Source: a virus
DNA length: 64,000 nt
Reading direction: 5' to 3' (one strand)
Virus record (IMG/VR): IMGVR_UViG_3300027839_000006
Location: 1 to 64,000 of that record
In this document: positions 1 through 64,000 of the stretch, in pieces
Layout of the letters: every line of letters begins with the position of its first letter
Position numbering within the stretch: the first letter of the stretch is position 1
The notes under the pieces: model-generated
What the model saw: only the letters and a program-made list of their open reading frames with translations
Told to the model about the DNA's origin: nothing
Databases searched by the model: none
Position numbers and translations under genes: made by a program

Positions 1-3000
1 CGTTTACATGAGAGGGTATTTCCCTGTTCGTGGGTTGTTTCGAGATATCGGAAACGAAGCTGACATCATAGGTGCTGATGGGTCTCTGACTACTGAAGAT
101 GGTCAGATTATGATCGATGACACGTATAGCAAGCTGACCGATGAAGAGATAGCAGCCGCAGCCGCAGCCGCAGCCGCAGCCGCTACGGCTGCCCCACCAG
201 TCCCAACGGACCACACCTATACGCTCGATGATCGGTATGCGTCTGGGGAAGACATTTCGGACCACCGAAAACTCTCAACACGGGATTCAGCAACCCCGGT
301 GCCGGTAGAAGGCGATGCCGCTGCACGGGCCACTACCGCTTACGAACACAACACAACAAATGCCGACAAGTCTCAAGCGGTAGCCGAGGCGATGGTGCTG
401 GCGATGCAGGTCTCTGCCCCAGAAGCAGGTGTTACGCATCACGACAACCCAAGGACCAACATTCTCAACGCCCATGAAGGGGGGCACAGCATACACACGG
501 CGACGGGCGAGCATCCCGAGGGCACGGCCCATGATTGGAAGTTCTATTCCGGTAGCACCTTCTTGGGATCGCCTTCCGATCCAGGGCGGGACAATAGGCC
601 AGAAGATGTGGCGAGTGCCGGGGATCGGTTCAACTACACGTCCTATGCAACGGCAATCGTTATGCAGGAGCAGGGGCTCATCCCTCCTGGCGGCAACGGT
701 TGGTACAACTCATTTAGTGAACCGGGTGCGGAGGGTTCATCGGAGATTCCACATTACGATTTCAGGGAGGGTTGGGATACCAATCCCGGGAACTTCATTG
801 CGGGTTGGTATATTTCTAAAGGGGAGTCCGGCGGGCGTGGGATCACGTTCACTGGAAATCCAGATGACGCACCGGGCGGCACGTTCAGATTCCGTAGTAT
901 GTACCCCGACGAGTTGATTGCAGAGGTCGAGCGGGTACGACTGTTAGCCGCAGCCGGGAAGTTCAACGGCGTTCCATCAGCATTTTCTATCTACCAAGCT
1001 CGTTTGGATGGTGACGACAGCATTTCTTGGGACGATAGCGCCCGACATCAAGCGATATCCTCATCGGCGGCACAGGCGACCTCCGAAGGGTCTGTTATTG
1101 ACAACGCCATTATTGACGAGTCTGTAAAGGGGCTTCACACCAAGGACGCATACGACGATCTCTTTTCTTACCCCTACTATCATGTCTTCCACGGGGTCGT
1201 GACCCAGGTTGACTTTCAGTTTTCGGGTGGGTTTCAGACGGCCAGCTTGAACTGTGCTTCGATGCTTCATTTCTGGGAGTACCAGAACATGAGTACGAAC
1301 GCTTCTTTCTTCGGCGCTCGCCCTACCAACTCCAAGCTCAACTACAGCCTACTGGGGCATAACTTCACGGGGATGCACCCGTATCAGATCATCTACACGT
1401 TGTTCCACGATACGGCGGGCGCTGCGGGCGGTGTTACCCATGCCATTAGGCAGCAGACCAACGTAGACGCAAAGATCGACGGGCAGGAGTCTTTGTTCTC
1501 GTTGAACATCAAGTATTGGGAGCAGCGTTTCCAACAGAGGATGATCGGCCTTCGGATGCACGGGGTATCTGGGGCGATGTATAACACTGTTCAAGCAGCG
1601 TTCCTTGGACGGCTTTCTACGGCGAATGCCAACAACTTGTTCAAGTCTCGATACCCAGGAATCGAGGGGTCAGCCCAAGCCAGGAGTCAAGTATCCAGCA
1701 TCTTCGATCAAGCAGTTGCTTTGGGTTTGGTCCAAGGAGACCGGAGGACAGCCCAGATCGCTCGAACGAAATGCGGTCTTGATGCAGGGGGTACGCACTC
1801 GGCGATGGGTGAGGCTAACTGGGGGCAGGCCGGACCACAAGACGCGGATTCCGATGGCAATCTCGAAAAAGATGACGTTGAACTCAATATGTTTGAGATG
1901 CAGGCGTTCGTCAAAGACCTTGGGCAGCTTGGGCAGATCAATATGTTCGAGTCGGCTTATGAGTCCAAGCTCGATATTATCAACAAGGTCTGTGAGGTCA
2001 CGGGCTTTGAGTTCTTCCAAGATGTAGATGGAGATTTCGTCTTCAAGCCTCCAATGTATAACCTCGACACATCTTCCAGCCGCATCTATCGGGTCGAGGA
2101 TATCGACCTCATTAGTTGTAACTGGTCAGAGAAGGAACCCGACTGCACATACATGACGGTCAAGGGCTCTCATTTCGCCAACATCGCAGGTACGGGGTTG
2201 GATAATGAGTGGGGTGTTCAAGGGACGTTCATTGATTACAAGCTCGTAGCGCAGTTTGGATGGCGTCCCGGGTCGTTCGAGACCGCTTACTTCAATGATC
2301 CAAGACAGATGTTCTTCGCAGCCGTCAACCGCACGGACATTCTGAATGTCGGTGTAAACTCTGGCAGTGTGACGATTCCTTTACGTCCAGAGCTTCGTCC
2401 CGGTTATCCGATCTACATCGCCCACTTGGACGCCTTTTACTACTGCAACTCGTTCGCTCATGCCTACCAAGCCGGGGGTCAATGTACTACGGCTCTTCAG
2501 TTGATCGGTAAGCGGGCAAAGTTTTTCGCTCCCGGTCGTACTGACATGGAGGGTATCGATGCGATTAGATTAGAGGACATGCTTCGCCCCCCGAAGCCTT
2601 TGTCGGTTTATGAGCAGATAGACGGGGAGTATATTCATCGAATCAAGGGGTATCCGAATGTTGTGATGGCACTCGACCCCACTGCTCTCAACCCAATGTT
2701 CTTCATCACTGGGGTTGATGGGGAAGCCTTGTCTCAACCTGACACTCTTCGTTCTTTGTTGAGGGCTGCCTCCAAAATGAATCAGGTAGTTACGGAGTGT
2801 ACCTCGCCCGCTGATAAGGCGAAGGGAGAGTTCAAGTATACGACGGGCGAGGGGACCAACATCACGACTACTTATATCACCATTGATCCAGAAGGTTCCG
2901 CCCGTGGTGAGGTTCGTTCAGACGGCCAGCTTGGTGGCTACACCACGGGAAGTGTCGGTGGAACCGTCGAGCTTTCTAATGTTGCGGCAGAGCGTGAAGA

Positions 3001-6106: not shown

Positions 6107-6107
6107 C

Positions 6108-8546
6108 ATGTTTGCAACATCACCATTTTCTGGATTTTCTACTTTTACTTCTTACCAGGGGCATCACCAGCTTCAACAAGCAAAGGCCCGTAAGAAGCTC
6201 CAAGAGGCACAACCGAGTCGAAACCCCCATTTGGGGGTGGGTCAAGTTGTCAACGTCAACTACGAAGAGTTTTTCGTTACGCTTCGTATTGTCATTGGGG
6301 ACGACTTTCAGAATCAACGTGTTCCTGTTCCAATCACTTTTCCTGGGGCTGGGGCACGACATTTCTTTGGATCAATGCCAGAGGTTGGAGACAACTGCGT
6401 GGTTGGTTGGATGCCCCAAGAGAGCGGGGGTGCCGGACCGAGAGATAATGAAGGAACCAAAACACCAGTAATCCTGGCTTGGATTCCACCCGGGGCTTGG
6501 CTTGGACACGACTGGGTTATTACCTCTCCCTTCACCGCCGACGAAGAAAGGATGGGACCACGGGGAGCGGCGATGGTCGAGGGGCAGTTCGCCCGTACTC
6601 GACACAAGAGGATGCACCTACGACCTGGGGATATTGGAGCAAGCTCTTCCAAAGGGTCAGACATCCTGTTGAATGAAGGGGTTTACATTACGAACCGTAA
6701 GGCGAATGAGCTACGGTTGAGAGACCAAGACCAAGCCTTTGTTGTTCGGTCACAGCAACAGTTTCATGTCATGTCAGGGGCACGGGTCTATGCGGGCATG
6801 ATCCAACGAGATGCCCACCTTCTTCAATCTGCCGTGTTCCATTCGAGGGGCTGGGCCACCGACCAGACAATGATGGGTAAAGACCAGAGCGGTGGGGGTG
6901 AACCTTGGATGGCAGGTTCGGCAATAGGTGCTCCCGATGCCGCCATTGATTTCTTGCGTATGCCTCGACCGCCTAATGTACGGTTTGAACCGATTTTGGC
7001 GTCCATAAAGGGGAAGACTGGGACTGACCCCGACAAAAAAGCCGTTTATGGGGGCAAGCCCATCTTTCGGGTCGCCTATAACGAACAAGGGTACACCAAT
7101 AATGCAGAGCTAACAGGTGCCAAGGCGTTCTCCGAGTATCGTATTGAAGTAGACCACACGACGGATGGGATACTTCCGGTTTCAGAACAGACAGAAGGGG
7201 TTGATCTTGACCGAATGTCGGGTAACCGTGGGCAGGCTTTCATTGAGTTTGCATTAGGGACCGTGGTCGGGAACAACGCCTTCAATGCAGACCGTGCTTT
7301 GTACGGGGTTCCGTTGAGGCCAGTGGTGTTTGACGGGCCGACTGCTACTCCTTCGATTTCTTCGGCTGCTGGCTTTGAACTCGGTGAACAAGCGGCCACG
7401 TTGTTTCGGGTACACCCAGTAGCTCCCGGGGATAAGTCACAGCACTCTGGAAGTTCATGGACATCTTTCACGAAGGACGGTCGATTCAAGGCCAGGATTG
7501 GGGGTCCAGAGGGAACCAACAGTGTCGAAGTGTCTGTTGCCGGGACGACTCGATTTGATACCGCAGGCTTGAATCTTTCAGTTGTGGGGCCTCTCGATTT
7601 ATCTTCTGGACCTGGGACAGATGGCGAGAACGTAGGGCTTCGACTCGGGTCGGCGGCAGGCGCAGTTGTCATTGAGTCTGGCGGGAAAATCGAAGGCGTT
7701 AGGGCAGTCAAAGCACTCCAAGAACCAGAAAGCGATAGCCCGATGGCAGCCGGTGCCCCAAAGGCCATCCCGAGTATGCTTCTCAAGGGCCAAGAGCTTC
7801 ACATGGAGTCAGAAGAGGGGGTTCTTATCGGGGCAGGCGGTTCCGCTACCATCACTGCGAAGTCTGGGATCTCTCTGAACTCACCCGGTCAGCAGATCAA
7901 CCTCAACGCAGGGGATGGGACCATTATCCTCCGTGCAAATGAGGTCCAACACGTTGCGATGGGGCGGGAGACCCAAAAATACTCGGGAGCTAATGGAGAT
8001 CGGATCACCGAGCTTCCTATGCGTCATACGAGCTTCACCGCAGGAGGCCCCATCTCCAATGGCGTCTGTTTCTATGAGGTTGTCGATGAAGTGGAGTACG
8101 CCAATGGCGGCAAACGGACCTCCTACGACTATGGGGACCGAGAATCGGTCTACAACATTGGGGCCGAGAAGACGATCTGCAAGACTGGCAAGGTCACTTG
8201 GGACGCTAACACGACCAGCAAGGATATTCCTGGGCTCAACCAAGTGACTTTTGGGGCCACTATTGGATTCATGGCCGAGATGCAGGTCGGTTCTGTGAAG
8301 ATGACTTCAACGGTAGGTTCCGCCAAGGTCGGGAGTAAGACAAAGACGACCATCGCTGCCTTGGGGCAGTGTGCCGTTGAGGGCAATACGATTGCTATGT
8401 CAGCCCCCGGAAGCCCTCTTGATAGTGGCGGGGTCATCTGTTCCGGCCACATCCACCCCATTATTGGGCAGCCCTTGGGTAGTATTATGTGTGGAAAAAT
8501 GGGTTCGATGACCATCACTATTAGGGTTGGAGCGTCAGCAGGATGA
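6108..8546 (+). CDS. Baseplate central spike (gp5/gpV/VgrG-like OB-fold plus beta-helix), about 812 aa
   Basis: ATG at 6108 follows GAGGA and the hub stop; the track's 6084 start overlaps the hub. OB-fold motif GQVVNVNYEE...VPITFPGAG...FFGSMPEVGDNCVVGW, a C-terminal run of short Gly/Ser/Thr-rich beta repeats, and an HxH motif (GHIHP) near the C-terminus. Confidence 0.8.
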   Translation: MFATSPFSGFSTFTSYQGHHQLQQAKARKKLQEAQPSRNPHLGVGQVVNVNYEEFFVTLRIVIGDDFQNQRVPVPITFPGAGARHFFGSMPEVGDNCVVGWMPQESGGAGPRDNEGTKTPVILAWIPPGAWLGHDWVITSPFTADEERMGPRGAAMVEGQFARTRHKRMHLRPGDIGASSSKGSDILLNEGVYITNRKANELRLRDQDQAFVVRSQQQFHVMSGARVYAGMIQRDAHLLQSAVFHSRGWATDQTMMGKDQSGGGEPWMAGSAIGAPDAAIDFLRMPRPPNVRFEPILASIKGKTGTDPDKKAVYGGKPIFRVAYNEQGYTNNAELTGAKAFSEYRIEVDHTTDGILPVSEQTEGVDLDRMSGNRGQAFIEFALGTVVGNNAFNADRALYGVPLRPVVFDGPTATPSISSAAGFELGEQAATLFRVHPVAPGDKSQHSGSSWTSFTKDGRFKARIGGPEGTNSVEVSVAGTTRFDTAGLNLSVVGPLDLSSGPGTDGENVGLRLGSAAGAVVIESGGKIEGVRAVKALQEPESDSPMAAGAPKAIPSMLLKGQELHMESEEGVLIGAGGSATITAKSGISLNSPGQQINLNAGDGTIILRANEVQHVAMGRETQKYSGANGDRITELPMRHTSFTAGGPISNGVCFYEVVDEVEYANGGKRTSYDYGDRESVYNIGAEKTICKTGKVTWDANTTSKDIPGLNQVTFGATIGFMAEMQVGSVKMTSTVGSAKVGSKTKTTIAALGQCAVEGNTIAMSAPGSPLDSGGVICSGHIHPIIGQPLGSIMCGKMGSMTITIRVGASAG

Positions 8547-9133
8547 GTGTTTCAACGATAGGGCTACCTCTCGCTTGTGCTGGCACTGGCACTGCTTACT
8601 CTTGGACTGGATCAGCAGGCGTTTCTTTCACCAGCGCCTTTGGGCGAGCGGTGAACTGGTGGCTTGGTCAGGGTACTTCTGTTCGACTTACCGGCGCTGT
8701 CATTGGGCTGATGGGAACCGGACAGGTGACGGGGAAGCTCATCATCTCCCCCGCCACCGGAGCCTATATGAGCTTCTTGTCTGCCTTTTCGATCACGGGG
8801 ATTCAAGCTCAAACGCTGGCAAGCATCTGCTCGCTCGGAGTTGTTGCAGGAGCCTCGACGACAGGTCTCTACAAAGGAGACTCCATCGGGGTCGCAACTG
8901 GTGTGGACTTGGGTAAGGTGACACTGGCAGATCCAACCACGTTGGCGGGGAGGATCATTGTGGAGTGGGGCAGCGGGCAGATCTATGGAGTGTGTATGAC
9001 GAGTCTTGCGAGCGCCCTGGCTTCTGGTGCAAGCGTCCAGACGTTGACGGGTATCGGTATAGGGGCCGTCACCCCGAAAGGTCCGGTTGCCCCCTGGCCT
9101 GGGGGCGGGGCTTCAACTTCAACTGTGCTTTAG
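8543..9133 (+). CDS. Gly/Ala/Thr-rich hypothetical virion protein, 196 aa; possible spike-associated tip protein
   Basis: ATGA overlap with the spike stop, GGAG upstream, and three loosely similar internal segments. Confidence 0.7.
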   Translation: MSVSTIGLPLACAGTGTAYSWTGSAGVSFTSAFGRAVNWWLGQGTSVRLTGAVIGLMGTGQVTGKLIISPATGAYMSFLSAFSITGIQAQTLASICSLGVVAGASTTGLYKGDSIGVATGVDLGKVTLADPTTLAGRIIVEWGSGQIYGVCMTSLASALASGASVQTLTGIGIGAVTPKGPVAPWPGGGASTSTVL

Positions 9134-28190: not shown

Positions 28191-28191
28191 C

Positions 28192-45178: not shown

Positions 45179-45814
45179 ATGGCCCAGTATAGAGAACGAT
45201 TGCGGAGAACCCGGTCAGCCTTCAAGGTTGGTCTGGGACTAAAGCTCGCAGATTATCTGGACGCCCCGCACGGTAGGTTCATTTTCCACATGGAAGATGC
45301 TCGCACGGGTGGGGTGCTAACCCATTGGGAACGAGACAATGTGATCACCCGAGATGCGGGTGTTCAAGCGGCTCGTTTGTTCCGTAATAGTGTGGAACCC
45401 AACCACGGATGCAACATGCTGTCGGTGGGTACGGGAGCCACGGGTAACCTTCTCTCTCCTGATGCCCCAAGCGCAGAGCAACGGCGACTCAACAACGAGA
45501 TTTCACGGAAGTCCTTTGCTTCCACGACCTTCCGCAATCCAGATGGTGTGGCAGTGTCTTATCCCACCAATGTTGTGGATTTTACGACGACATTCGGAGA
45601 GGCAGAAGCGGTAGGGCCTCTGAACGAAATGGGCCTTGTGTCCACTGTTTCAGCTAACCCGACCGTGTTGAACCCCAATCCGAACGCTTATCCCACGTAT
45701 GACGCTACGTTGGATGTTACAGAATATGATGTGCTCTTGAACTACTTGACCTTCAGTGTAGTCACCAAACCGAGCACAGCCATTCTGACGATCACTTGGC
45801 GTCTAACCTTTTGA
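45179..45814 (+). CDS. Tail-fibre attachment / collar-type baseplate protein, 211 aa
   Basis: NVITRDAG...LSVGTG...LNNEISRK...FTTTFGEAEAVGPLNEMGL...VTKPSTAILTITWRLTF resembles the fibre N-terminal adaptor fold that is often a standalone gene in large myophages. Confidence 0.65.
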   Translation: MAQYRERLRRTRSAFKVGLGLKLADYLDAPHGRFIFHMEDARTGGVLTHWERDNVITRDAGVQAARLFRNSVEPNHGCNMLSVGTGATGNLLSPDAPSAEQRRLNNEISRKSFASTTFRNPDGVAVSYPTNVVDFTTTFGEAEAVGPLNEMGLVSTVSANPTVLNPNPNAYPTYDATLDVTEYDVLLNYLTFSVVTKPSTAILTITWRLTF

Positions 45815-52300: not shown

Positions 52301-55300
52301 CTTCTTGGCTGCAAGCTGGTTTGCACGAACAGTCCCTTACAGTCTTTACCGATCCCGGTGAGGCTCAAGTTGCAGGGCTACCAGACCGGAACCCTCCAAT
52401 GTTTGAGGGGCTCCAATCTCCGTTCCCGGCAAGAGGCATCCTTCTGTACCCCCAGACGAGCTACACGGGAACCCACCGCCCCCTGGCAGGCGAAGACTAC
52501 GCAGGCAACGCCCAACCCGACTATTCCGGCATCACGGGCGACCGTGGCTATGTTCGCTGCTTCAACGTGGGGTTCTCTCGGACAGACTATGGATCTTCCG
52601 CAGCGGGTCAGCCATTCTTTACCCTTCGCCTTTGGGGCCTGCATGTAAGCGATATCGCTTACATGGCACCCGGTCCTGGATCATATTCCATCTCTGTTCA
52701 AGTCAAAGTCCCCGGGCTGACGACTTGGATGGATCTTGGCCGTCCCGATGGGGCAGGCCCCTCCAAACAAGACCCCAAGCTCGATGGAGCAGGGTGTCTT
52801 GTTCGTGGGCCAGAAACGAAGAACAACCCCGCTGAACCCGTTACAGGATTGGTCTCCTGTGACTTGAAAGTGAACGTCGGCCCGGTAGCTAATCTCTTTG
52901 AGAGTACCGGCCATGACTTTGTGGCTGGCGAGGTTCCTGTACTGATCAAGGTGGTCTTGAAAGACCGAGAGAGTACGCTGCAAGGGAATCCGAATGTACT
53001 CCAGTACGATTTCCGCCATCGTTGGGACAGCGAGGACGGAGATTTTGATGGGGGACCACACCCAGACTTCGAGTCAGGGTTGGTTCGTGGGTTGGTTGGC
53101 ATCGAGATTCTTCATCCCGAGGGTCATGCCGCCCCCAGTCCTGCGGCGCTGCCCCCCGGTTTGCCTGTGGTCACCGCCCCAGCCCCATTCTCTGTGGAGC
53201 TTGATGTGGCAGCAGCCGCATCGGCTGCTCAAGCCATCTCCTTCGCTATCGCTGCAACAGTAGCGTCTCAACAGGTGGTCCAACAGAGCTTTACGACTCT
53301 GTTTCCAAGTCTTATGGTAGGGCTCAACGAGGCCATCGCTGCTGCTCAAGCACAATCAAGTGCTGCCTCCAGCACTGCATCCCCGATTCAGGTCTTCGAC
53401 TACCAGCCCACGGTAGAAGGGCTCGATCCAAGTGCCACACTGACGGTGGCCCCAGCGGCTCTGGTAGAGGCCCTGGAGGGGTTGGAGACTATGTTCGCCT
53501 CCAAGACCGAAATCTTCCAAGCGTTTGATCCAGTTGCTAACCCACTGTTAGCAACAGAGTTGATTGGCACTACTGGAGGTTGGGGTTCTATGGACGGTGT
53601 TGATGTCGGTGTTGATCCCTTTGGGGTCAATGCAGCGCAGTTGGCATTGAACGTAGCGAACGCCGATCTGGTCGCCGTACAATCCTCTTACGATGAGGCT
53701 GTTGCCTCTCTCGCTGCCCTTACGACTGCCGTTACTACTCTGTATGATCACTATACAGCGGAGGGTACTGATCCTACGAGCGAAACCGTTTACAATGGGT
53801 TGATCGCAGCACAGACCACAGCGCAGCAGCAAGTTGACCAACTTGGGGCCGCTCTTGCGGCGGCTCTCGCAGCCGTTGAGGCCGCATCCGCCGATCTGGC
53901 TCAAGCCAATGCACGCACAGCCCAATCACAAGCAGCCAGCGCAACTGCAACTTCGACAGACGCCGAGAATCAGGCAGCCGCAGCCGTAGCGAACGATGCC
54001 GCACATGCAGCCGTTACATCAGCAGCCGCAGCCGTAGCCGATTACCAAGCGGCGATTGTATCGGTGACCGATGCAATCGCGACACTGATTGCTGCGTCTG
54101 CTCCCACTGGACCCGGTTCCATCGTGGCTACGCTGCAAGCCATTCTTGCAGCGAACGAAGCGGCATTGGCCGAAGCTATGGCAACGCAAGAGGCGGCGAA
54201 CGCCACATACGTCGAGACACAAGCAGTCCTCGCATTGGCACAAGCCGCTTACGACGCCTCACTCGCCCCCACGGTATCAACGTCTCTGTGGACTCTTGCT
54301 ACTCACGCCTCTGATCCTGCTGTGCCTGCCGGAAGTGTGCTTGCGTTTAGTAGTTACAGTGGCACAGCCCCGACCCTTACGGTCTCACATGACCCAACCC
54401 TTGGCATCGCCGCACACCTGTTTGGGTCTGACGCAAACGGGATTCTCCTGACCTACGGTCCCGGGTTCTCAATGGGTGCGTTGTTGGCGTTGTTGGAGTC
54501 GCATTATGCGGCGGATAACGCATCCGCCATGTTCTACGACGGGAGTAACTGGCTGGTGTCAAACACCATGCTTGGCACTGGTGCGGATTTCTTCCTCGCA
54601 GGAGCCACTGAATCGTTGAATCTCGGCCCCGCCGAGTTGGGTGCAAATGGTGCTGGTACGTGGGTCGCCCAGGCTGTGGATCACTCCGTTATTTGGTCGA
54701 TCAGCACCTACTCTTCCGTACAACCGGGTCAAAACACGGGCGCAACTGCTTGGGGTGACCTGACTTTCACTGCGTCTACGGCCAACATCCCAGCCGGGGT
54801 GACGGGCGTGCTGGTCGAATACGATGCGAACGCCGCTGCGGGCTCGGTGGTAGAACTTTCTACCACCCCCAACCTAACCTTGAAGTATGGCCCCGGGGTT
54901 CAACTCTCGGCGTTGATGGATGCCTGGGCAAACTCCAACCTCATCCCTGGAACAGAGGCGACGTTCGTCACAGCCATAGGGACATACGACTCTTCGGCGT
55001 TGGCGGCCAGCGCCGAAGATGGCTTCATTCAGACTATCGGACACTTCTCTCTGGAACTGGTAGCCAACACTTTCGCTGAAACACCCACGGCGATTTCGGG
55101 TGAGTGGACATTGGTTACCCAGGACTTCACAACTTCATGGTCGCTGATGACCCCCACACCGACAGCCATTGGGACATTCGCTGTTACCCAAACTGTCATC
55201 GGCCCCGCTACGGTTTCCCCTCAAGTGGGGATTCAGATCGAATACGACGCCAGCGTGGCAGATTATTCTGGAACCACGGTCGGCGATCCCGGTTCGGATA

Positions 55301-56970
55301 CCTACCAAATCAAGTACGGCGACATCACTCTCGCCACTTTGATGGGGTCCATCGATAGTGATCCAAACCTCCAGTCGGCTGGTATTCGGACTACTGTCGC
55401 AACGCTCGATGAGCAGAATGCCTCATTCATAAGTGGAACATCCCCTTGGGATATGGCTCTGAAGCAAGGCGATAACGTCATCGACTTTGATGAGCAGGCG
55501 TGGGGAGCCACTTCATCAGTGACCTGGACATCTCTACCAGTCTTCGTAGCGGCAACATGGACCATTCTGGAGATAGATGACTTCCTGCGGCTTGGACATG
55601 AGGTCGATCCTGCTGAAACCCGAAGTATTCAAGCCTCGTATGACGCTGCCCGCACCCCGCACGAAGTACAGGTCAGTTTCAATGCCTCATCTGGACTCAC
55701 AACGATTACCTACGGGGCCAACACCACCCTCAGTGAACTGATGATGGGCTGGGAGCTTTACGTCAGTGACAACAACCTTTCCAGTCCAGCAGCGGTGACA
55801 GCGGGTAATCACCCGGCTGAAGTTGATGGTCTCCCCGGCTTGGGCGATGACAGCATCTCTGGGGCTGAACTCGTAGCCAACGGCGGGGATATTCCGTTGC
55901 TGGGCATTACGAGTGATACTTACGGTTTCTGGAGTCGCAACCTTCCCATAGCGGTGATGGGTCAGGCGACCGTTGTTACGGCAACCCAGACCGTCACACC
56001 TTATCTGACTGACTTCACCTTCACTTGGGACATGCCCGAAGAGTTCGACAACGCTGGTACTGTCATCCCTGCCATCGGCAACTTGGAAGTCACTCACACG
56101 GCGGTCCCAACTACCGCTTTCAGCAGCTACTATCCCTATGGGCAAGGCATTAGCATCACGCACGATTCAACCCTCTCGACCTCGTTTGGCAGTCAAATAA
56201 CAGGGATCGCACCGAATCAGATCGTAGCTATCACGTACAATGACAGCCAGCCGATAGCTCTACTGATGGCCCACATCAAGACCGTTCTCGAAGCACTGCC
56301 ATTAGCTAATGGCAGCACCGTTACGGTGACACTTGGCGGGGTCGATGCCAATGCAGTACAGAGTGACCCCACCGCTAATGTAATGACTCAACTTGGAAGC
56401 CAAAGGCTCCTGTTTGATACGCCCACGTCTTTGAACTTGAACACTCCGGCCCCTGCTTCTTGGGGCTACACGGCGGCGTACAACGAATGGCAGGTTGCAT
56501 GGACCATTGGTGTCTCGGGGGAAGCTAACAACCCGAACCAAGACCAATCGCACGAACTGGTGCTCTCACGGATGAGCGTACATACCCCCGAGGCACCCCC
56601 GCCTTTTTACAGCATCAGTTTTGAGTACGATTCCACGGCAGCCGCCGGTTCCGTGAATCCCGTGCAGAACGACATAAATGACCCCACGGCAGGTGTAGTT
56701 TGGAAGTACGGGGTCAATGTCTCGATGATGGACCTAATGTATGCCATTGACGTTTCTGCTTCTTGGGGAGGTAGTGATACCCCGTCCAGATTCTCGACAT
56801 TGGACGGGAACACTCGGGACGAAGTTCCCGGTGGAGTGGCCGGAGACTTTACACTCGTCGCATATGACTCAGAGGGCAACGCCGCCAAGGCTCTGTTCCT
56901 ACCAGCAATCCAGACATGGGATAGCACTGACACGGTGGTCCCAACCCCTGCGACATGGGACACAGTATAA
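49369..56970 (+). CDS. Giant fibre-like protein: globular N-terminal half, Ala-rich coiled-coil stalk, six C-terminal repeats, 2533 aa
   Basis: RBS GGGAG. HIDDETGAHPAASI...ADDVEGALDEL fibre-linker motif. Composition changes abruptly after VRGLVGIEILHP. Confidence 0.8.
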   Translation: MPRKKNPGDIRVGAGSRSVEETNWTLTPGKAGKVDEADASHAEAEHDHGIGPGGVGSSPLKTHIDDETGAHPAASISIDGNPGGVFTADDVEGALDELSALIPPKPPKVGYERCFLDLTGIPDWGVLKLTDASLLFRSPAIFTHTSNPPASIYPYYWHPTHPAWEHRPFEAEGKQFDNDYTMAGEQWSQGGDDPWTDHTFNIHAVTYSGGGAGLTHAGAFTRSDNNNVHERVDTVRIYPAYDIGTGTNVDDNGLIPVVLSGMIHPADRGLLALIYWPPGGDIAAFMAQDLAEQVPAAILLGQGILGQGCPCDGDPGGIFLMGEDENGDFDPYEWPGAAAGQSSLQELHSGIRYDGLIFSQDSPYYNFDELQDESKEIGSFVLNGTEVTFTVTNHLFDEADVVSVRENSTHPWLNTDWIIELVDNDHFLIRLGEDVGSATVDPADGKVFRKVGANKAHYPDEVHTPYPGQVRLGTDPQAGQAIPNGIPILGAYSKARAGGNDNNFFRYRLPYLNEYSNEACWRLKWTPTSEKGRYYLKPAVALEPDDLLAQAGDYPDFTKDYWPFQLGRYRHRFLINACPCVGIENAPFDLGSYVLVHFKKEVYFEDMVARGEMPTKDRIYSAYLAHFDDPEHVSNAANAEESGWQALIGPDFNRAPWSYHVMRASILADMRESSDAPTISNAAFDYETVGDNVMWVSGVAYFHPTQADGTAGFWLKDVTTSAAGLWANNYRTSDHLQRVLNTPNPALLGVAPFSYTTHVPDWVDTDGVGKPRRQRVEFDMEYLLGAVPGFGVDLAPIATAAANISVDTMKLSGDAAFASFSSDAHPRAWFRRPLGHTTYSPASTVLPTIGVSLMLPNGLKLLNHSSALSLYPIFGNFFEGGIPLLSLTGGLMADKPLAIWKDSVEWFLDESYRYSLDWSLALNGGDIQDELNARLAGPGLPYTSGNPQPIEVPVRAAHTPTITAVINSEAVDCDWNNASWLQAGLHEQSLTVFTDPGEAQVAGLPDRNPPMFEGLQSPFPARGILLYPQTSYTGTHRPLAGEDYAGNAQPDYSGITGDRGYVRCFNVGFSRTDYGSSAAGQPFFTLRLWGLHVSDIAYMAPGPGSYSISVQVKVPGLTTWMDLGRPDGAGPSKQDPKLDGAGCLVRGPETKNNPAEPVTGLVSCDLKVNVGPVANLFESTGHDFVAGEVPVLIKVVLKDRESTLQGNPNVLQYDFRHRWDSEDGDFDGGPHPDFESGLVRGLVGIEILHPEGHAAPSPAALPPGLPVVTAPAPFSVELDVAAAASAAQAISFAIAATVASQQVVQQSFTTLFPSLMVGLNEAIAAAQAQSSAASSTASPIQVFDYQPTVEGLDPSATLTVAPAALVEALEGLETMFASKTEIFQAFDPVANPLLATELIGTTGGWGSMDGVDVGVDPFGVNAAQLALNVANADLVAVQSSYDEAVASLAALTTAVTTLYDHYTAEGTDPTSETVYNGLIAAQTTAQQQVDQLGAALAAALAAVEAASADLAQANARTAQSQAASATATSTDAENQAAAAVANDAAHAAVTSAAAAVADYQAAIVSVTDAIATLIAASAPTGPGSIVATLQAILAANEAALAEAMATQEAANATYVETQAVLALAQAAYDASLAPTVSTSLWTLATHASDPAVPAGSVLAFSSYSGTAPTLTVSHDPTLGIAAHLFGSDANGILLTYGPGFSMGALLALLESHYAADNASAMFYDGSNWLVSNTMLGTGADFFLAGATESLNLGPAELGANGAGTWVAQAVDHSVIWSISTYSSVQPGQNTGATAWGDLTFTASTANIPAGVTGVLVEYDANAAAGSVVELSTTPNLTLKYGPGVQLSALMDAWANSNLIPGTEATFVTAIGTYDSSALAASAEDGFIQTIGHFSLELVANTFAETPTAISGEWTLVTQDFTTSWSLMTPTPTAIGTFAVTQTVIGPATVSPQVGIQIEYDASVADYSGTTVGDPGSDTYQIKYGDITLATLMGSIDSDPNLQSAGIRTTVATLDEQNASFISGTSPWDMALKQGDNVIDFDEQAWGATSSVTWTSLPVFVAATWTILEIDDFLRLGHEVDPAETRSIQASYDAARTPHEVQVSFNASSGLTTITYGANTTLSELMMGWELYVSDNNLSSPAAVTAGNHPAEVDGLPGLGDDSISGAELVANGGDIPLLGITSDTYGFWSRNLPIAVMGQATVVTATQTVTPYLTDFTFTWDMPEEFDNAGTVIPAIGNLEVTHTAVPTTAFSSYYPYGQGISITHDSTLSTSFGSQITGIAPNQIVAITYNDSQPIALLMAHIKTVLEALPLANGSTVTVTLGGVDANAVQSDPTANVMTQLGSQRLLFDTPTSLNLNTPAPASWGYTAAYNEWQVAWTIGVSGEANNPNQDQSHELVLSRMSVHTPEAPPPFYSISFEYDSTAAAGSVNPVQNDINDPTAGVVWKYGVNVSMMDLMYAIDVSASWGGSDTPSRFSTLDGNTRDEVPGGVAGDFTLVAYDSEGNAAKALFLPAIQTWDSTDTVVPTPATWDTV
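54280..56800 (+). repeat. Six degenerate protein-level repeats (about 130-175 aa period)
   Basis: Recurring W...[ILV]x[ILV]x[YH]D...[ILVW][TK]Y[GN]x3-4[LMI]xxL[LM], with anchors near 54450, 54880, 55310, 55705, 56230 and 56700. Confidence 0.7.
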
Positions 56971-57063: not shown

Positions 57064-57082
57064 GCACGGAGAGTCGAGTCTC

Positions 57083-60000
57083 ATGGCAACAGATAAGGAA
57101 CTGCTTGAAAAGTTGCGTAAGGCCCTCGAAGAAAAGGGCCATACGACAGCTTTGCGTGAACCGTGGCAAGAACACCTTGACCGGCATACCTCTGTGTCTT
57201 CAACGGCGTCTTTGCAGGCGTCCGAGATCTTCTCGGACTTCGCTGGATCGTGGGCTGCTTCCTATCAAGTAGACCCCACCGCCACAGATCTGGACAAGAT
57301 CTCCAACGAGCGGCTGCCCCCTTCTCCTGCGAAGATGACCTCCAAGCTCGGTCTCCCGGGCTACCCCGAAGTCAACTTCATCCCGTACAGCCACAACACG
57401 AATCGTTTTGGCGTCAAGGGGCCATCTCTTTTAGGCCATCCGATCTCTTTCGAGGTCATCGGGCCAACCGCCAAGTCTCCCAACGTGGACTGGCAGTGGT
57501 TTCTTCAAGAAGGCTCCAGTGAAGACCGCCTCTATTTGGATCTTGGGGCGAACCTCCAAGATCCAAATGGAAGCAGTGTTCTGGCTCCTTCGATCACCAG
57601 CCTGCAAGACGGTTATGGGGATCTCTACGGTGACAACAGTCAGGCCGGGATCTATGTCATCATCACCCAGACGGGTGAGAACTCCAAGACGGACACCCAA
57701 GTAACGGGTGTTGGTGACGGCTACATCGCTCTGGAGGGCGTTGCAGGCCCGGGTGGGGGTCTCCGAGAGGCGATTCGTGCCAAGACCGGAGCCTCGAAGT
57801 ATGAAATCTTCCGAGTTGTCTCCTGGTCAAACGACTACCTGCAACTCGATCCGGGTAAGCGGATTCGAGACCACTTTGACATCTCGGCCAGCACAGACCC
57901 GATCATCCGGTCGATCATGTTGGTTCGACCAAAGGCCACTCGAATGGTCTCCATCCCCGGTACAGGGGATGCGAAGGGACAAGAACGTGCCCTCGTTGTG
58001 GTTCCTCCCGAGCGGTCCCTCAACTCCGATCTGAAGCCTCCTTATGAGTACGACAACGCTGCTCCTGGCTCATGGCGAACCGAGGGGTTCTACGGAGCTT
58101 GGCCCGGTCTGGGTAATGGCGACTCAAATCTTTACGCTCAAGGGTCGTCTCTTCCGGTCCCTCGGATCGTGGGCCGGTCCCGGGCTTTGCTCCCATCTAC
58201 TTTGGAAGTCCCTGGCGTACCCCCCAATCTTCTCGTACTCAAGGCCGCCACTTACTCGGGGGTTGAAGATGCGAGGGATGAGCTAAAGGCCGGGGATGTC
58301 ATCCATCTCCATGAGGTCTATTCTGACGAACTTGCGGAGGTAGCTCCGAAACTGACCGCCTCACCACATGGTTGGTGGGAAGTAACCAGTGTTCCTGCCC
58401 GTGGGGGGACAGACCAGTTTATCCAGCTTCGAGGGATCGAGGAAGTAAACCCACGCACGGGTAAGGCTCACTTCGGTCCGTGGGCAATCGACGGGTCAGG
58501 CCAAGATCTCTCACAACCGGTCCCGCAGGTTTGGGTCAAGTTCACGATCCACAAGCCCATCAAAGACTTGTGGAGCAACACAGGTACGGGGTATCAGTTT
58601 GATCTGGACGCTCTGAAGAGCGCCCGCTTGACCAACTTGATTGACCCTTCTTGGGTCCGTGAGTCTGGTAAGGCCATTGAGATTGGGCACGAAACGGTCT
58701 GGGCCAAGGCCGATAAGGCCATCTTCGATACCACGTCTTCACAGCAGGGTCTTTCTGGAACGAACGCAAACCCAGGCAGCTTGCTGGACCTCGGTTTCCG
58801 AATGGTCCTCTTCCCCGCTATGGCGTCGGGGGATCATCTGGTCCCAGACTTCGCCAACCCGATTGATAGCCTGGAGGTTCGTTTAGATGAGGATGCTGCT
58901 GACGAACGGCAGTATCTCACTATCGACTATTCAGCAGGCATCGTGGTCCTCTCTCACTCCCCCAAGCTGGGGTGTGAGCTTGATCCTCATGGGTTGATTG
59001 GGCAGATCACCGACTTGAACCCTCGGGGTGAGCTTGTTCTCTTTGCTTCCTGTGTTCCGTACTCGATGGAGATGGGACAGCTTGGATCAAGCATCCGAGT
59101 CACTTCGGGAGCGATGGAGCCCGACTGGTGCCTCCCCGATTCGACCCAAGCCGATGTCTATGGTGCCCGTCACCGTGTAGATATCAAGACGGATGTTGAT
59201 GGGGCACCACAGATCGTAGGCAGTCAGGTCTTGGGTCAATCCCTCGTCTTGGCGCTGGCTGTTCCAGCCACACCGATGGAGTTCAAGAAGTCCCTGGCGG
59301 CTTTCCCGGTCGCTGGTCACATCGAGATTCTTCAGTCGAGCGAGGCCCCGGCGTTTACCACAACGTCATCGACCACGGACACTATCCGACTCTCGACGTT
59401 CTCCTATAACGGAGTGGACGTATACACAGACTCGGACGGCCCGTGGGTTCGGTTGCGAAATGTCTATGGCGGTGCGGACGCTGGCAATAGCGTAACGGTC
59501 AATCACGACGGGGAGTTCCTCGTCGTATTCCGCAAGGACTTCTACCCAGAGACCGTGATCGACTCCACGGGAGACTCTGACTTCTCCTATCAGTTGGACA
59601 CGACACACGGTTCTGCCAAGCGTACAAAGACCCTCCGGTTTGCTCACGCCAACCTGTTCGAGAACCTCGACGGAACCATCACGGTTTACCCAACAGCCGT
59701 TGACGGACCAGCAGAGGAACTGCGGGCCTTCTTCCCACTTGGGGGGCCAGACGACACTGCTCGATTCCATTTGGTCCCCGAGACGCAGATGTGGACCGCA
59801 GACAGCGGCCCGTGTCGGGATGATGGGGAGCATGAGGTCGGTATTGAGATCAAGCGGGGACGCTTCTTCTCGTCCATGCGAGTGGATGTTCGCCAAGACC
59901 ACATGCGGTACTGGCGGTTCACCAACCTCGTATCGAAGCTGGAGCTTCAAGCACCACAAGGACTTGAGACGCCACCAGATACTTTCGTAGCCCACATCAA

Positions 60001-63000
60001 CACCGGGCAGGATGCAACTCAACCCCTGCCTCCGCACTACATGGACTGGATGCCCCAATCTGAAGGGGCTCTCTGCGCCGTCATTGAGGGTTCAGTCATC
60101 TTCTCCAGAGGACTGGCCGAGCTTGGTAGTTCAGCGGTCTCGGCATCAACGGAAAGCGCCCGATTCGTTCTCAATGCCCGTATGTATATGGGACTCGACA
60201 GTCAGTTCTTTGCTGGCCGCCCGTCTTTCCGTGATGAGTATGCACAACGAGACACCTTCCCGTCCCGTGGGTTGGAATCCCAGATCGCAGGTATTCTTGC
60301 AGAGGCCGAAGAAGGCCCCGCCAACCCGATCAACTGGTTCGCCCACACTGCCGAGGTGTGGAACAACGACCTCAATGCTGATCGGTGGGAAGTCCGAGCC
60401 AAAGAGCTACGTGAAGACGTAAACAACCACTACGGACGGCAGCGTCATGGTGGGATGGGCAAGATTGCTTCGTTCTACACGGACGCTCTTGAGTCCCCGA
60501 ACTACAAAGAAGACACACGATTGGCCTTTACGGAACGTCAAGTTTCGACGCTCCCGACCAAGCCGTATCTGTTGTCTGATCCCATCCCCCAGGACGGGAT
60601 GGCGTTCCCAGAGGGCTATCGGTACATCCTAACGGTCAAGTCGGCTGACCCGAAGAACGGCAACGCCTCCAAGTGGATCACTGCCCAGGTCATTAGTACC
60701 GATGAGATGCCGGTCACAACTGATCCAAATGTTGTTGCCCACTACCTCAACAATGCGATTTACGATGGCACCGTTTCCAACAACATCGATGCAGAGTTGG
60801 ACAACGCAGGGTTCTTCAAGACCCTTGGGGCGGGTGCTTCTTATGCAGCCGGTAACAGTCTTCTCGGGACGAGTACATTAGTATCCAACCTGACCCGTAA
60901 CCCCATGCTTACCCGGGATGAACGCCAGTTTTTGTGGTGCGGCCCCGGTGATCCACGACACCCCGAACACGTTATCGGAGGCTCCAACGATACTGGTAAG
61001 GTTGCCCTGCTTTGCGGTGGCTGGGGTTCTGCTTCTGCTGAAAGTTCTGCTGGCAGCCATCGAGACTTTACTAATGTCGTTGTTGAGTTCACCCATACAG
61101 CAGACTTTGGAGACGCCGGGTGCTCTGGTTGTGAAGATCTGGCCGAGTTCCTTGGCGGAGACTTCGCTCTCGACCGGCCTACATGCGGGTTGTTCTTCGG
61201 AGGGCACGCATGGGAGACCTTCCAAGTCGGTGCCCAAGCCTACGGGACAGACCTTCCGATAGAGGGCTCGCAGCTATTCGTTGGCAGTCAGGTTTACACA
61301 CTCACCGCCGATGACAACGTAGTACATCCCGACAAACCCTTCGTTGGCACCAATGTCCGTATTGCTTCGGGTGGTTTCGACACACTGAAGAACTTGGTTC
61401 GAGCAATCAGTACACACTCTGGGGACAGGGTGTGGATGTTCCTCCCTCCCGAGTACCTTCAGGACCAAACATCACAAGCCATTATTGAGAACGCTCCCGG
61501 TCACATTATTCGTCAAGAAGAAGATGTCACCCAACTCCGGTGGGTGGGTGGTCGTCAAAACGACCCGGCCAACCCGTGGTTGACGTTTTCGCAACCGGGC
61601 GGCGCTTCAGATCTACATGCCACTGTTTGGTGGTATCGCCCAGCCCCCGCAGTGAACACGGATGTCAATCCGTGGGAGTTTGGCAGTGGCTTGGACGGTA
61701 ACAAAACCGAGGCCCGACTTTCGGATGCCCTCGGGTTCCTTCAGCGTGGAACCCCCCCGTTGGGTTCAATGGCCGGTTCCTTTCCCATTAGGGGCACCTA
61801 TGGCGACACAGAGGCACTGGTCCTCGGGATGCCGAAGGGAGATAGCCCCTATTACAGTGGCCCCCAGGCAGGAACAGGGCTCCCGAAGATTCACGGCAAA
61901 CATGCCATCCCGGGCTACCTGGGACGGTGGGCGTGGGACATTGAGAACACCATTGATCCTATTGATGTCACAGACCCCACTACCGCAGGCATCGGTCAGA
62001 TCCTTGCCACTTACGGTGTAGGGGCTCATTCAGAGAACCATTTTTCCAGCCAGTTGGCGAACCGTACCAGTTTGGAAATGGCGGGCGTGGCCCCCGATGG
62101 GTTTATCAACACGACGCCCCATCCCCACCATCTCCAAGTTGGGGATGAAGTCACTATCTCGGGCTCATCCCTCCAGCTTCCTTGGCTCGGTGAGCACAAA
62201 GCTCTGAATGGTCGCCATCGGGTGATCGCACTCTCCACCGACCAAGATGGGAACACAGACCCGTTCAAGTTCCAGATTGATCTGGGGGACGGCACCGGCT
62301 CTGTAATCCAAGACCCAATCGACAACTTCTATGAGTTCCACGGTCTCGGGGAAGTCTCTGTTGGTAAGACCTTCCAAACAACGGATACCCGTTGTGGGTT
62401 CGGCGAACAGCAAACTGGCTACGAGTCCTTCCTTGTCTACGCAGTGGAACTGGATCGTCACGACACCGCAGCCCTTCTGAAGAAGAAAACAGTACGGGAC
62501 TTCATCGGAGTCGGGGACATTATCACTGGCCGCTCATTGAGCATCGCCGGGGATGAGACCTATCCGTTCGTTCCTGTTGAGGGGCAGCGTAACGATCCTT
62601 CGTTCCACGGCCTTGTCTTTGATCCTCTCGCTCCGTTGTCTCTGAAGACCGGGGCTGTGGATGAACAAGGCGCTCCGGTAACCGTAGACAAGATCGGTAG
62701 CTCGGCCTTTACGTTCCTTGTCCATCGGACGATGAACACGGACCGGGCAGCATGGCCGAGTTCGGAGCAAGCCCAACTTGCATCGGCGCTCCCCAGTCAC
62801 CTCCGAATGTCGGAAGTGCAGCCGTATGACTTCGGGTTCAGCACCCCAGACCGGGCGTTCCCGGTTGGTGAATCCTTCAGCATTTCGATCATCGCTAATG
62901 CGAACGCCATCACGTCTTCGGGGACTTTCAAGAGCCTGTATTCCGCTTTGTACGGGATACATGGAAAGGGATACACAGGTACTTCGGCCACCCCCGGTCT

Positions 63001-64000
63001 CGATGGCGGCTCTGTTACGTCATGGCCTGGAGAGTCTTCGATTCCCAACGCCATCTTCATGGCTGGCGGTCGGATCAACCTTCTGTCCAACCTCAACCCA
63101 ACGGCCCCCGCAGGGTTGGTGTTCTCATCACCGACGCCCGGGGTCTCCGACGTAAACGCAGAAGAGCGTTATGCCACGACCTACATTGAACACGGGGTCT
63201 TTGTCTCTACGTTCAATGCCCATCATCCTTCTCCGCACTCGTCCTACAAGCTGCCTACTATTGGTGTTGGCGCTCCCCTCGATTCTGCTGGGCTCCATTC
63301 AGCGTTCTCCACTCTTCGGGGCAACACGGAAGCCCAGTTCAAGGGGGGATCTTCAATCGGTGGGGTGGGTGGTCTTCGGATCTCCGGTGACGCCACCATA
63401 TGGCTGAAGAATGTTCGGGGGATGGGCGGTAAGAACGCTTACGTCCGACGCTCTCCCACTATCTATTACACAAAGTCCCCCTCGGGTGCTCCTGCCCTCG
63501 GCAACACCACTACCGGTCCCATCACGTCCTTCGGTCGTGATGCTGTCTCGGGGCACACCCCCAGTGGGTTCTCTGCTTCCAAGCGGACAACTGTAAATAG
63601 TGATGGAGCAACGCTCCATCTCCAAGAAGCGACGATTGAGATCGGCCTTACCAGGGCTGATCTTGCTTCATTCCGATACGCCACAGGCAACCCCGAGTTC
63701 CCTGCGTTGCGAGACGATGTTCACGAACCCTTACAGGACCAAGACAGCGACGGTTATTGGGATGACCAAGGCGAGGGCGAGCGTATGCTCCACTACGCCA
63801 ACGCCGTCGATTCCGTAGACCTCCCTGTTCCAGCCCGGTTCTTGACTGGCAGCTATCTCACGCTATCCCCCACCCAACCCCCTGGTTGGGATGAGGCAGG
63901 AAGTCCGAATACCCGGTCAAGCAGCAAGGTGCTTACGGATCTTCGACTTGACGAACAAGGTAACCCCACCCTCACCAACCCCAATGACGGGTCTTGGAGG
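57083..64000 (+). CDS. Giant putative structural protein, 3'-truncated (>2306 aa); not in the supplied ORF track
   Basis: ATG at 57083 (MATDKELLEKLRKALEEKGH...) after GGAG. My manual translation stays open to ...NPTLTNPNDGSWR at 64000. Contains YLTIDYSAGIVVL, HHLQVGDEVTISG...LNGRHRV and DQDSDG motifs like the neighbouring structural proteins. Confidence 0.85.
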   Translation, partial: MATDKELLEKLRKALEEKGHTTALREPWQEHLDRHTSVSSTASLQASEIFSDFAGSWAASYQVDPTATDLDKISNERLPPSPAKMTSKLGLPGYPEVNFIPYSHNTNRFGVKGPSLLGHPISFEVIGPTAKSPNVDWQWFLQEGSSEDRLYLDLGANLQDPNGSSVLAPSITSLQDGYGDLYGDNSQAGIYVIITQTGENSKTDTQVTGVGDGYIALEGVAGPGGGLREAIRAKTGASKYEIFRVVSWSNDYLQLDPGKRIRDHFDISASTDPIIRSIMLVRPKATRMVSIPGTGDAKGQERALVVVPPERSLNSDLKPPYEYDNAAPGSWRTEGFYGAWPGLGNGDSNLYAQGSSLPVPRIVGRSRALLPSTLEVPGVPPNLLVLKAATYSGVEDARDELKAGDVIHLHEVYSDELAEVAPKLTASPHGWWEVTSVPARGGTDQFIQLRGIEEVNPRTGKAHFGPWAIDGSGQDLSQPVPQVWVKFTIHKPIKDLWSNTGTGYQFDLDALKSARLTNLIDPSWVRESGKAIEIGHETVWAKADKAIFDTTSSQQGLSGTNANPGSLLDLGFRMVLFPAMASGDHLVPDFANPIDSLEVRLDEDAADERQYLTIDYSAGIVVLSHSPKLGCELDPHGLIGQITDLNPRGELVLFASCVPYSMEMGQLGSSIRVTSGAMEPDWCLPDSTQADVYGARHRVDIKTDVDGAPQIVGSQVLGQSLVLALAVPATPMEFKKSLAAFPVAGHIEILQSSEAPAFTTTSSTTDTIRLSTFSYNGVDVYTDSDGPWVRLRNVYGGADAGNSVTVNHDGEFLVVFRKDFYPETVIDSTGDSDFSYQLDTTHGSAKRTKTLRFAHANLFENLDGTITVYPTAVDGPAEELRAFFPLGGPDDTARFHLVPETQMWTADSGPCRDDGEHEVGIEIKRGRFFSSMRVDVRQDHMRYWRFTNLVSKLELQAPQGLETPPDTFVAHINTGQDATQPLPPHYMDWMPQSEGALCAVIEGSVIFSRGLAELGSSAVSASTESARFVLNARMYMGLDSQFFAGRPSFRDEYAQRDTFPSRGLESQIAGILAEAEEGPANPINWFAHTAEVWNNDLNADRWEVRAKELREDVNNHYGRQRHGGMGKIASFYTDALESPNYKEDTRLAFTERQVSTLPTKPYLLSDPIPQDGMAFPEGYRYILTVKSADPKNGNASKWITAQVISTDEMPVTTDPNVVAHYLNNAIYDGTVSNNIDAELDNAGFFKTLGAGASYAAGNSLLGTSTLVSNLTRNPMLTRDERQFLWCGPGDPRHPEHVIGGSNDTGKVALLCGGWGSASAESSAGSHRDFTNVVVEFTHTADFGDAGCSGCEDLAEFLGGDFALDRPTCGLFFGGHAWETFQVGAQAYGTDLPIEGSQLFVGSQVYTLTADDNVVHPDKPFVGTNVRIASGGFDTLKNLVRAISTHSGDRVWMFLPPEYLQDQTSQAIIENAPGHIIRQEEDVTQLRWVGGRQNDPANPWLTFSQPGGASDLHATVWWYRPAPAVNTDVNPWEFGSGLDGNKTEARLSDALGFLQRGTPPLGSMAGSFPIRGTYGDTEALVLGMPKGDSPYYSGPQAGTGLPKIHGKHAIPGYLGRWAWDIENTIDPIDVTDPTTAGIGQILATYGVGAHSENHFSSQLANRTSLEMAGVAPDGFINTTPHPHHLQVGDEVTISGSSLQLPWLGEHKALNGRHRVIALSTDQDGNTDPFKFQIDLGDGTGSVIQDPIDNFYEFHGLGEVSVGKTFQTTDTRCGFGEQQTGYESFLVYAVELDRHDTAALLKKKTVRDFIGVGDIITGRSLSIAGDETYPFVPVEGQRNDPSFHGLVFDPLAPLSLKTGAVDEQGAPVTVDKIGSSAFTFLVHRTMNTDRAAWPSSEQAQLASALPSHLRMSEVQPYDFGFSTPDRAFPVGESFSISIIANANAITSSGTFKSLYSALYGIHGKGYTGTSATPGLDGGSVTSWPGESSIPNAIFMAGGRINLLSNLNPTAPAGLVFSSPTPGVSDVNAEERYATTYIEHGVFVSTFNAHHPSPHSSYKLPTIGVGAPLDSAGLHSAFSTLRGNTEAQFKGGSSIGGVGGLRISGDATIWLKNVRGMGGKNAYVRRSPTIYYTKSPSGAPALGNTTTGPITSFGRDAVSGHTPSGFSASKRTTVNSDGATLHLQEATIEIGLTRADLASFRYATGNPEFPALRDDVHEPLQDQDSDGYWDDQGEGERMLHYANAVDSVDLPVPARFLTGSYLTLSPTQPPGWDEAGSPNTRSSSKVLTDLRLDEQGNPTLTNPNDGSWR

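Follow-up and report, generated by a model that had tools for sequence, protein, structure and literature searches.

A probable baseplate and tail-fiber module of unusual size from an uncultivated huge phage

The first 64,000 nt of the IMG/VR viral record IMGVR_UViG_3300027839_000006 (hereafter the window, meaning the whole stretch of DNA that was analyzed) carry 16 genes, all on the plus strand, which very probably make up the baseplate and tail-fiber module of a huge, contractile-tailed phage that has not been cultivated. Fifteen of these genes are long open reading frames (ORFs), numbered g1 to g15 in order, and the remaining one is an ORF of 90 amino acids (aa). Intergenic DNA sums to about 350 nt, so the window is approximately 99% coding, and its GC content is even throughout (51–58%). 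Six products reach at least 1400 aa: g1 (2133 aa), g4 (4941 aa), g10 (1486 aa), g11 (2039 aa), g14 (2533 aa), and g15 (more than 2305 aa). We consider these to be genuine genes because open frames of 4 to 15 kb are beyond chance and because each of the six has a syntenic homolog of similar length in other genomes. There was no support for any minus-strand ORF in the window, and none was looked at further. A preliminary description of the window had counted 16 co-oriented genes with six products of 1400 aa or more, and the ORF listing, taken together with the 90-aa ORF, gives the same figures. The sizes it gave for the core parts also proved correct, namely 812 aa for g2 (a length that presumes an ATG start at position 6108), 379 aa for g7, 1169 aa for g8, and 517 aa for g9, with more than 2034 aa of g1 inside the window.

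The window was compared with three IMG/VR genomes, UViG_3300028422_000919 (402 kb), UViG_3300037805_000644 (223 kb), and UViG_3300028840_001395 (436 kb), with the deposited sequence LR745208.1 (485 kb), and with Tunturi 5 (PP885688), a cultured myovirus of 309 kb that is its nearest cultured relative. Three adjoining genes carry recognizable wedge components of a contractile baseplate. The product of g8 (29378..32887, 1169 aa) matches Baseplate_J (PF04865) with an E value of 5.7e-23 (82 bits vs a curated cut-off of 21.1) and phrog_6 at 4.3e-29, has homologs of 1125 to 1239 aa in the relatives, and is clearly a gpJ/gp6/TssF-like protein by sequence. The end of g7 (28239..29378, 379 aa) coincides with the start of g8 at position 29378, and the two genes are adjacent in the same way in the 402-kb, 223-kb, LR745208, and Tunturi 5 genomes. 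With PF10934, g7 scored below the cut-off of 32.9 (20.8 bits, E value of 4e-4), and it matched phrog_2669, a “baseplate protein,” at 2.6e-7. A profile built from four g7 sequences gave just three matches in the PDB, all of them sheath initiators (phi812 ORF61, diffocin CD1370, and pyocin PA0617, with E values of 0.04–0.13). These results support a gp25/gpW-like sheath-initiator domain, predicted to occupy the C-terminal ∼130 aa of the protein, behind an N-terminal extension of ∼210 aa.

The third of these genes, g9 (32887..34440, 517 aa), is assigned through its predicted structure, in which the fold of the conserved core, with a C-terminal β-barrel, agrees with that of gpI/Mu gp48/TssG; g9 is on this basis a predicted gpI/TssG-like wedge protein. 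Sequence comparison returned PF10076 at an E value of 0.11 in one of 30 family members, and hhalign aligned the KPAH motif of the g9 family with Mu gp48 at an E value of 0.003 but with a probability of 10%; a search of the PDB with the g9 profile produced only noise (chance matches to ACE2). Together, g7, g8, and g9 would form the conserved wedge core, which would start the sheath and trigger contraction. Wedge proteins of the gpJ and gpI types are characteristic of contractile systems. Their presence here, together with that of the gp25-type sheath initiator, argues against a non-contractile tail with a siphovirus-type tip complex, a possibility raised by the lack of any sheath profile match in the relatives, and the tail of Tunturi 5 contracts, having been seen both extended and contracted by electron microscopy (PMC11924767). 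We consider a non-contractile tail highly improbable.

Upstream of the wedge genes, g2 (6108..8546, 812 aa) is predicted to fold into an N-terminal OB-fold (oligonucleotide/oligosaccharide-binding fold) followed by β structure, like solved spikes. When the predicted structure was searched with Foldseek, the top 11 matches were all central spikes (E values from 2.7e-5 to 1e-2), with structural alignments spanning 97 to 197 residues against P2 gpV, Mu gp45, PhiTE, and the R2 pyocin spike. By sequence, two of 120 g2 relatives have a precomputed DUF2345 match and a VgrG (PDB ID: 6sjl) was matched weakly (E value of 0.038), while g2 itself has no Pfam match, a phmmer search of the PDB was silent, and hhalign of the g2 family profile against single Mu proteins was insignificant. 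The predicted fold thus identifies g2 as a probable central spike. It would be a trimeric, membrane-piercing spike attached beneath g1; we infer the trimeric state, as we do all stoichiometry of this apparatus. The next gene, g3 (8543..9133), encodes a Gly/Thr/Ala/Ser-rich protein of 196 aa without a family match in Pfam or PHROG and is seen elsewhere only as positional orthologs, at 27 to 33% identity in the 402-kb and 223-kb genomes. It may cap the tip of the spike.

Local tblastn searches found the whole block from g1 to g15 to be syntenic in the 402-kb and 223-kb genomes, gene for gene, at 27 to 65% identity and with similar protein sizes. The 402-kb genome is bounded by direct terminal repeats. 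The 436-kb genome also has terminal repeats, is rated 100% complete by CheckV, and contains homologs of the hub-position protein g1 and of g4, the only two genes examined there. LR745208, deposited as an “uncultured phage,” holds most of the block genes, with the spike, hub, and g4 homologs at separate loci. Tunturi 5 carries homologs of g1 (gp254), of the gene upstream of g1 (gp255), of g7 (gp242), of g8 (gp241, 1239 aa), of g12 (gp222), and of the N terminus of g13 (gp247), and large genes likewise separate its spike region from gp25. It differs from the window in that identity is only 22 to 34%, the hub-position protein has 883 aa vs 2133 aa, the intervening genes encode RCC1-repeat proteins, and the 49 kb of its tail region that were examined showed no g4 homolog.

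The preliminary description had suggested a massive adsorption and injection apparatus of a jumbo-phage lineage or, if the contig were cellular, a giant extracellular contractile injection system (eCIS). A giant eCIS or a locus resembling a type VI secretion system (T6SS) in a cellular genome would account for the spike, gp25, gpJ, and gpI homologs, which are common to phages, eCIS, and T6SS, and several of the top fold matches of g2 and g9 are indeed eCIS chains. However, the closest whole-block relatives are 402- to 436-kb terminal-repeat IMG/VR viral genomes and the deposited 485-kb phage, and a cultured myovirus shares five genes with the window and has a tape measure upstream of the hub, in the usual phage layout. 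Because of the synteny with terminal-repeat viral genomes and LR745208, and the homologs in Tunturi 5, we conclude that the window is phage DNA; we hold a cellular eCIS to be very unlikely and give an eCIS or T6SS-like origin next to no weight. The jumbo-phage attribution is accordingly borne out by synteny with phage genomes of 223 to 485 kb, two of which were found to hold the whole block through the IMG/VR synteny search that the same description had proposed.

That description had also left room for a characterized phage with parts of similar size. No characterized phage matches the block at these sizes, and none of the huge-phage relatives is annotated or characterized; the block itself is not unique, as hundreds of metagenomic relatives, many of them huge phages, have parts of similar size. 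The enlargement is therefore a trait of a widespread huge-phage clade and not of this genome alone. Within that clade the phage of the window lies at the upper extreme of size, since its versions are the longest seen: compared with the relatives, g4 is longer by ∼1000 aa, g10 by ∼470 aa, g14 by ∼1270 aa, and g15 by more than 340 aa.

Several results weigh against reading the window as the baseplate and fiber module of a huge phage. The call between phage and cell rests on the genomes of relatives and not on the rest of the window’s own contig. In the relatives, searches for Phage_sheath_1 and Terminase_6C came back empty, and Terminase_6N scored only below threshold. Functional annotation is lacking altogether for g3 to g6, g10, g11, g14, and g15; among the 15 long proteins, Pfam and PHROG scans returned matches only for g7, g8, g12, a small module of g4, and, marginally, g13. 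Apart from that small PHROG module, g4 has no match in Pfam, the PDB, or the ESM Atlas. For g1, no Phage_GPD, gp27, or VgrG profile matched either the protein or the three genomes of relatives at E values up to 10, searches of the PDB were silent both by phmmer with g1 and by profile with its core, and hhalign of the g1 family profile against the single Mu proteins gp44 (E value of 0.3) and gp43 was insignificant. The missing sheath and terminase matches fit the high divergence of the clade, given that nine tail genes preceding the hub in the 402-kb genome likewise yielded nothing useful in a PHROG scan.

The protein at the hub position is encoded by g1 (2..6106), which ends immediately upstream of the spike gene at 6108. 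The gene begins 99 codons before position 1 of the window; a metagenome contig identical over the overlap supplied the missing start, giving 2133 aa in full, and a database copy of 2137 aa is present on a 155-kb contig. The exact proteins of the window are found on contigs of 155 and 209 kb, and the source contig, Ga0209501_10000591, runs on for ∼43 kb in the upstream direction. An alignment across three genomes divides the protein into a conserved N-domain (residues 1–115), a variable insert (115–470), a strongly conserved core (480–1010), a variable region of no assigned structure, and a conserved C-domain (1800–2030). The family is large: a word search gave at least 623 proteins, and an exhaustive profile search of 1.84 billion proteins gave 1473 clusters at 50% identity, mostly of 1300 to 1800 aa. 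That exhaustive search recovered close relatives only, with no bridge to canonical hubs. Two PHROG families are matched by small, distant relatives of g1 (724–842 aa): phrog_52, a “tail protein” family (1.7e-7), and phrog_1015, whose label is “tail protein with lysin activity.” The LR745208 ortholog of g1 (1686 aa) also matches phrog_52, at the equivalent of g1 residues ∼840 to 923; phrog_52 was not found in Mu or Tunturi 5. Tunturi 5 gp254, itself annotated as a “tail protein with lysin activity,” is matched by g1 at an E value of 6e-19 and lies two genes downstream of the annotated tape measure.

The insert site is occupied by different lytic domains in different members of the g1 family, which carry an SLT domain (193–312), an Amidase_2 domain (158–269), or a tail lysozyme domain (185–257) there, and one member has an M23 peptidase at 1091 to 1185; the lysin inserts of this family are thus modular. 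In the window, the insert contains the motifs H..G.A.D, PPGG.G.Y, and PH.D (nt 512–760), which are invariant in the window and in the 402-kb and 223-kb genomes. The HxxGxAxD … HxD motifs, which would supply His-Asp-His ligands, we take to be signatures of LAS/M15 zinc peptidases, and by this motif likeness the insert resembles an LAS/M15-like cell-wall hydrolase. No Pfam profile, M15 families included, matched the isolated insert at E values up to 5, and a three-sequence profile of the insert had no match in the PDB. On the evidence of sequence and gene order, we read g1 as a tail-tip protein at the hub position that carries an exchangeable module of the cell-wall hydrolase type; from there, its insert would open peptidoglycan locally.

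From position only, we infer that g1 has a gp27-like hub fold. It could instead be a tail-lumen or tail-tip lysin, akin to a C-terminal extension of a tape measure or to phiKZ gp181, with another protein as the true hub, for example the 668-aa product of the upstream gene. The lack of any gp27, gpD, or VgrG profile match or PDB sequence match would be understandable in that case, as would the PHROG links, which lead to “tail protein” and “tail protein with lysin activity” and not to “baseplate hub”; the upstream protein, moreover, has a PG_binding_1 motif and a homolog in Tunturi 5 gp255. Against this, g1 directly precedes the spike gene, an arrangement shared with Mu, and Tunturi 5 has a separate tape measure two genes upstream of its g1 homolog. 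The N-domain and core of g1 are Gly/Pro/aromatic-rich, unlike helical tape measures, and the best hhalign segment, though insignificant, sets the N-domain on Mu gp44 residues 16 to 40. We regard a lysin that is not the hub as unlikely, although it retains appreciable weight.

Two further observations concern the surroundings of g1 and its family. The PG_binding_1 motif of the 668-aa protein encoded just upstream (E value of 2e-4, just below the cut-off) is accompanied by a poly-Ala linker, and its homolog gp255 is annotated as a “virion structural protein.” One of the small distant relatives of g1, of 724 aa, is encoded on IMGVR_UViG_3300028840_008160 (329.8 kb), which is classed as a provirus by IMG/VR and on which no g4 homolog was found.

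The most unusual element of the window is the 3600- to 4900-aa family represented by g4 (9148..23973), a non-repetitive protein of 4941 aa that matched no known fold. Its homologs in five other genomes, of 3642 to 4008 aa, align with it end to end, and those of all four huge-phage genomes compared here (402, 223, 436, and 485 kb) fall in this size range; conservation is strongest in regions 1 to 2600 and 4250 to 4941, and the additional ∼1000 aa of the window’s version sit in the variable center. In the genomes examined that have it, g4 is placed between spike and wedge, except in LR745208, where it lies at a separate locus. The protein is Gly/Asp/Thr/Val-rich and no internal repeats were found. 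A small module at residues 3794 to 3883 is common to PHROG baseplate-wedge and other virion families; blastn and tblastn searches of this module against phages gave no match. The N terminus of g4 drew only scores below 0.9 from the ESM Atlas, and the g4 profile matched a plastocyanin in the PDB at an E value of 0.04, which we judged to be due to chance. Two specific roles were considered and rejected. A tape measure does not fit the lack of repeats, the Gly/Asp/Val/Thr-rich composition, and the separate tape measure upstream of the hub homolog in Tunturi 5; for a two-barrel RNA polymerase, the sole DxDG-like motif, DRDGK, is without the third Asp.

Between g4 and the gp25-like gene lie three smaller genes. 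The 90-aa ORF (23985..24257) encodes a charged protein that appears helical as judged from its sequence, and it overlaps the start of g5 by 26 nt. The 982-aa product of g5 (24232..27180) has hydrophobic N-terminal segments by hydropathy and syntenic homologs of 1013 and 1084 aa, and had no match in Pfam, PHROG, or the ESM Atlas. The product of g6 (27180..28190, ∼336 aa), encoded directly upstream of g7, has no Pfam match and is conserved beside the gp25 homolog in the 402-kb, 223-kb, and LR745208 genomes. We consider g4 to g6 and the 90-aa ORF to be conserved, clade-specific additions that would most likely form structural layers of an enlarged baseplate.

For g4 itself, one could imagine a giant scaffold that builds an extra baseplate layer absent from every solved contractile system. 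More generally, we tentatively propose, as a possibility that falls well short of being favored, that the g4 family is an unrecognized class of tail-tip machine component, acting either as such an extra-layer scaffold or as a spike-associated ejected protein. The narrower proposal that g4, and perhaps g5, is cargo that enters the host with the spike, in the manner of T6SS effectors encoded next to VgrG or of the giant virion proteins of N4-like and crAss-like phages, can point to the location of these genes directly after the spike and the candidate tip protein, to the hydrophobic helices of g5, which could insert into membranes, and to the fact that most of g4 matches no structural-protein family. 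But the one small module that does match belongs to baseplate-wedge and other virion families, the composition is Gly/Asp/Thr/Val-rich with no enzymatic motif by Pfam, and a protein of ∼540 kDa would be hard to pass through a tail tube; we hold cargo to be decidedly unlikely and structural layers the better account of g4 to g6.

Downstream of the wedge core, g10 to g15 are probably peripheral baseplate or fiber proteins, a view drawn mostly from their position. In g10 (34515..38975, 1486 aa), conservation covers the N-terminal ∼930 aa and gives way to a lineage-specific C terminus. Counterparts in the relatives cover the first ∼1250 aa of the fiber-like g14 (49369..56970, 2533 aa) and the first ∼870 aa of g15 (57083..64000), which runs off the window after more than 2305 aa. 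All three proteins are thus conserved only over their N-terminal 870 to 1250 aa and are much longer in the window than in the relatives, which is the pattern expected of fibers with lineage-specific distal parts. The conserved N-terminal parts of g10 to g15 would dock on the wedge, and the variable or extended C-terminal parts would face the host. From approximately residue 1250 onward, the C-terminal half of g14 (53100–56970) is a lineage-specific extension, with nothing equivalent in the homologs of the 402-kb and 223-kb genomes (1264 and 1268 aa, respectively).

The neighboring g11 (38995..45114, 2039 aa) is likewise a candidate peripheral baseplate or fiber protein. In LR745208.1 (23370–28661), the g9 homolog is fused to a g11-like protein in a single ORF of 1763 aa, and g10 is absent; this fusion suggests that g11 contacts g9. 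The short g12 (45179..45814, 211 aa) matches phrog_5417 at 8e-21 and Tunturi 5 gp222, a “virion structural protein,” at an E value of 9e-15. The product of g13 (45827..49366, 1179 aa) is conserved throughout, and its N-terminal modules match Tunturi 5 gp247, an annotated tail fiber protein; no solved structure was matched when the g13 profile was searched against the PDB. These N-terminal modules recur in the relatives at the start of a second giant gene downstream of the block, which encodes 2114 aa in the 402-kb genome and 2121 aa in the 223-kb genome (recurring module at 228285–229124 and 55600–57000, respectively, and at 312102–312938 in LR745208). The two proteins may share one docking module.

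The layout as a whole resembles that of the simple baseplates of Mu (gp44 to gp48) and P2 (gpD, gpV, gpW, gpJ, and gpI), with which it shares the order of hub-position protein, spike, gp25-like, gpJ-like, and gpI-like proteins and fibers, as well as similarity in fold or profile for the spike, gp25, gpJ, and gpI. This order, proposed in the preliminary description from hub to fibers, holds through profiles for gp25 and gpJ and through predicted folds for the spike and gpI; the hub falls short of it, in that g1 gave no gp27 or gpD profile match and differs from gp44 and gpD in having no sequence-level match to them, and the fibers follow mostly from the position of g10 to g15, with the N terminus of g13 matching an annotated fiber. 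The sizes quoted for the Mu parts agree with the Mu record (379, 197, 145, 360, and 180 aa), and the parts in the window are 2.6 to 5.6 times longer; set against P2 and Mu together, the recognizable parts are 3 to 6 times as large. Moreover, unlike Mu and P2, the window has a 19-kb block, g3 to g6 with its 4941-aa protein, between spike and gp25, and six giant downstream proteins in place of a single fiber and its chaperone. The T4 baseplate, built from gp27, gp5, gp25, gp6, gp7, and gp53 with gp8 to gp12 at the periphery, has a conserved core encircled by large wedge and many peripheral proteins, with a lysin tied to the hub-spike complex. In general terms, the window is similar in having a complex baseplate around a conserved core and a lysin associated with hub and spike, but the T4 lysozyme sits on the spike gp5, whereas the hydrolase-type insert of the window sits on the hub-position protein, and of the T4-family profiles only the gp25 and gp6 (Baseplate_J) classes were matched.

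Metagenomes are almost the only source of what is known about huge phages, whose virion genes mostly lack annotation; the block offers an anchored parts list of the tail tip for a widespread clade. It indicates that the conserved contractile core is retained within a module about ten times the size of its Mu counterpart, that cell-wall hydrolase domains are exchanged at one fixed position of the hub-position protein, and that the module includes a conserved protein of ∼4000 to 5000 aa without a known fold. The C-terminal extensions of the fiber-like proteins are candidate determinants of host range. If g4 is indeed a new component of the tail tip, then g4 and the multi-kilobase fiber genes would imply the most massive baseplates known. 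Tunturi 5, as a distant cultured relative, could allow structural work on the core parts that it shares with the window.

Within the otherwise tightly packed window, the longer intergenic gaps at 28191 to 28238, 34441 to 34514, and 56971 to 57082 hold similar short elements (CGTTTT-N4-TCTAT, CCATAT-N4-TCAAT, and CGATAG-N4-ACTAT, respectively), which may be promoters.

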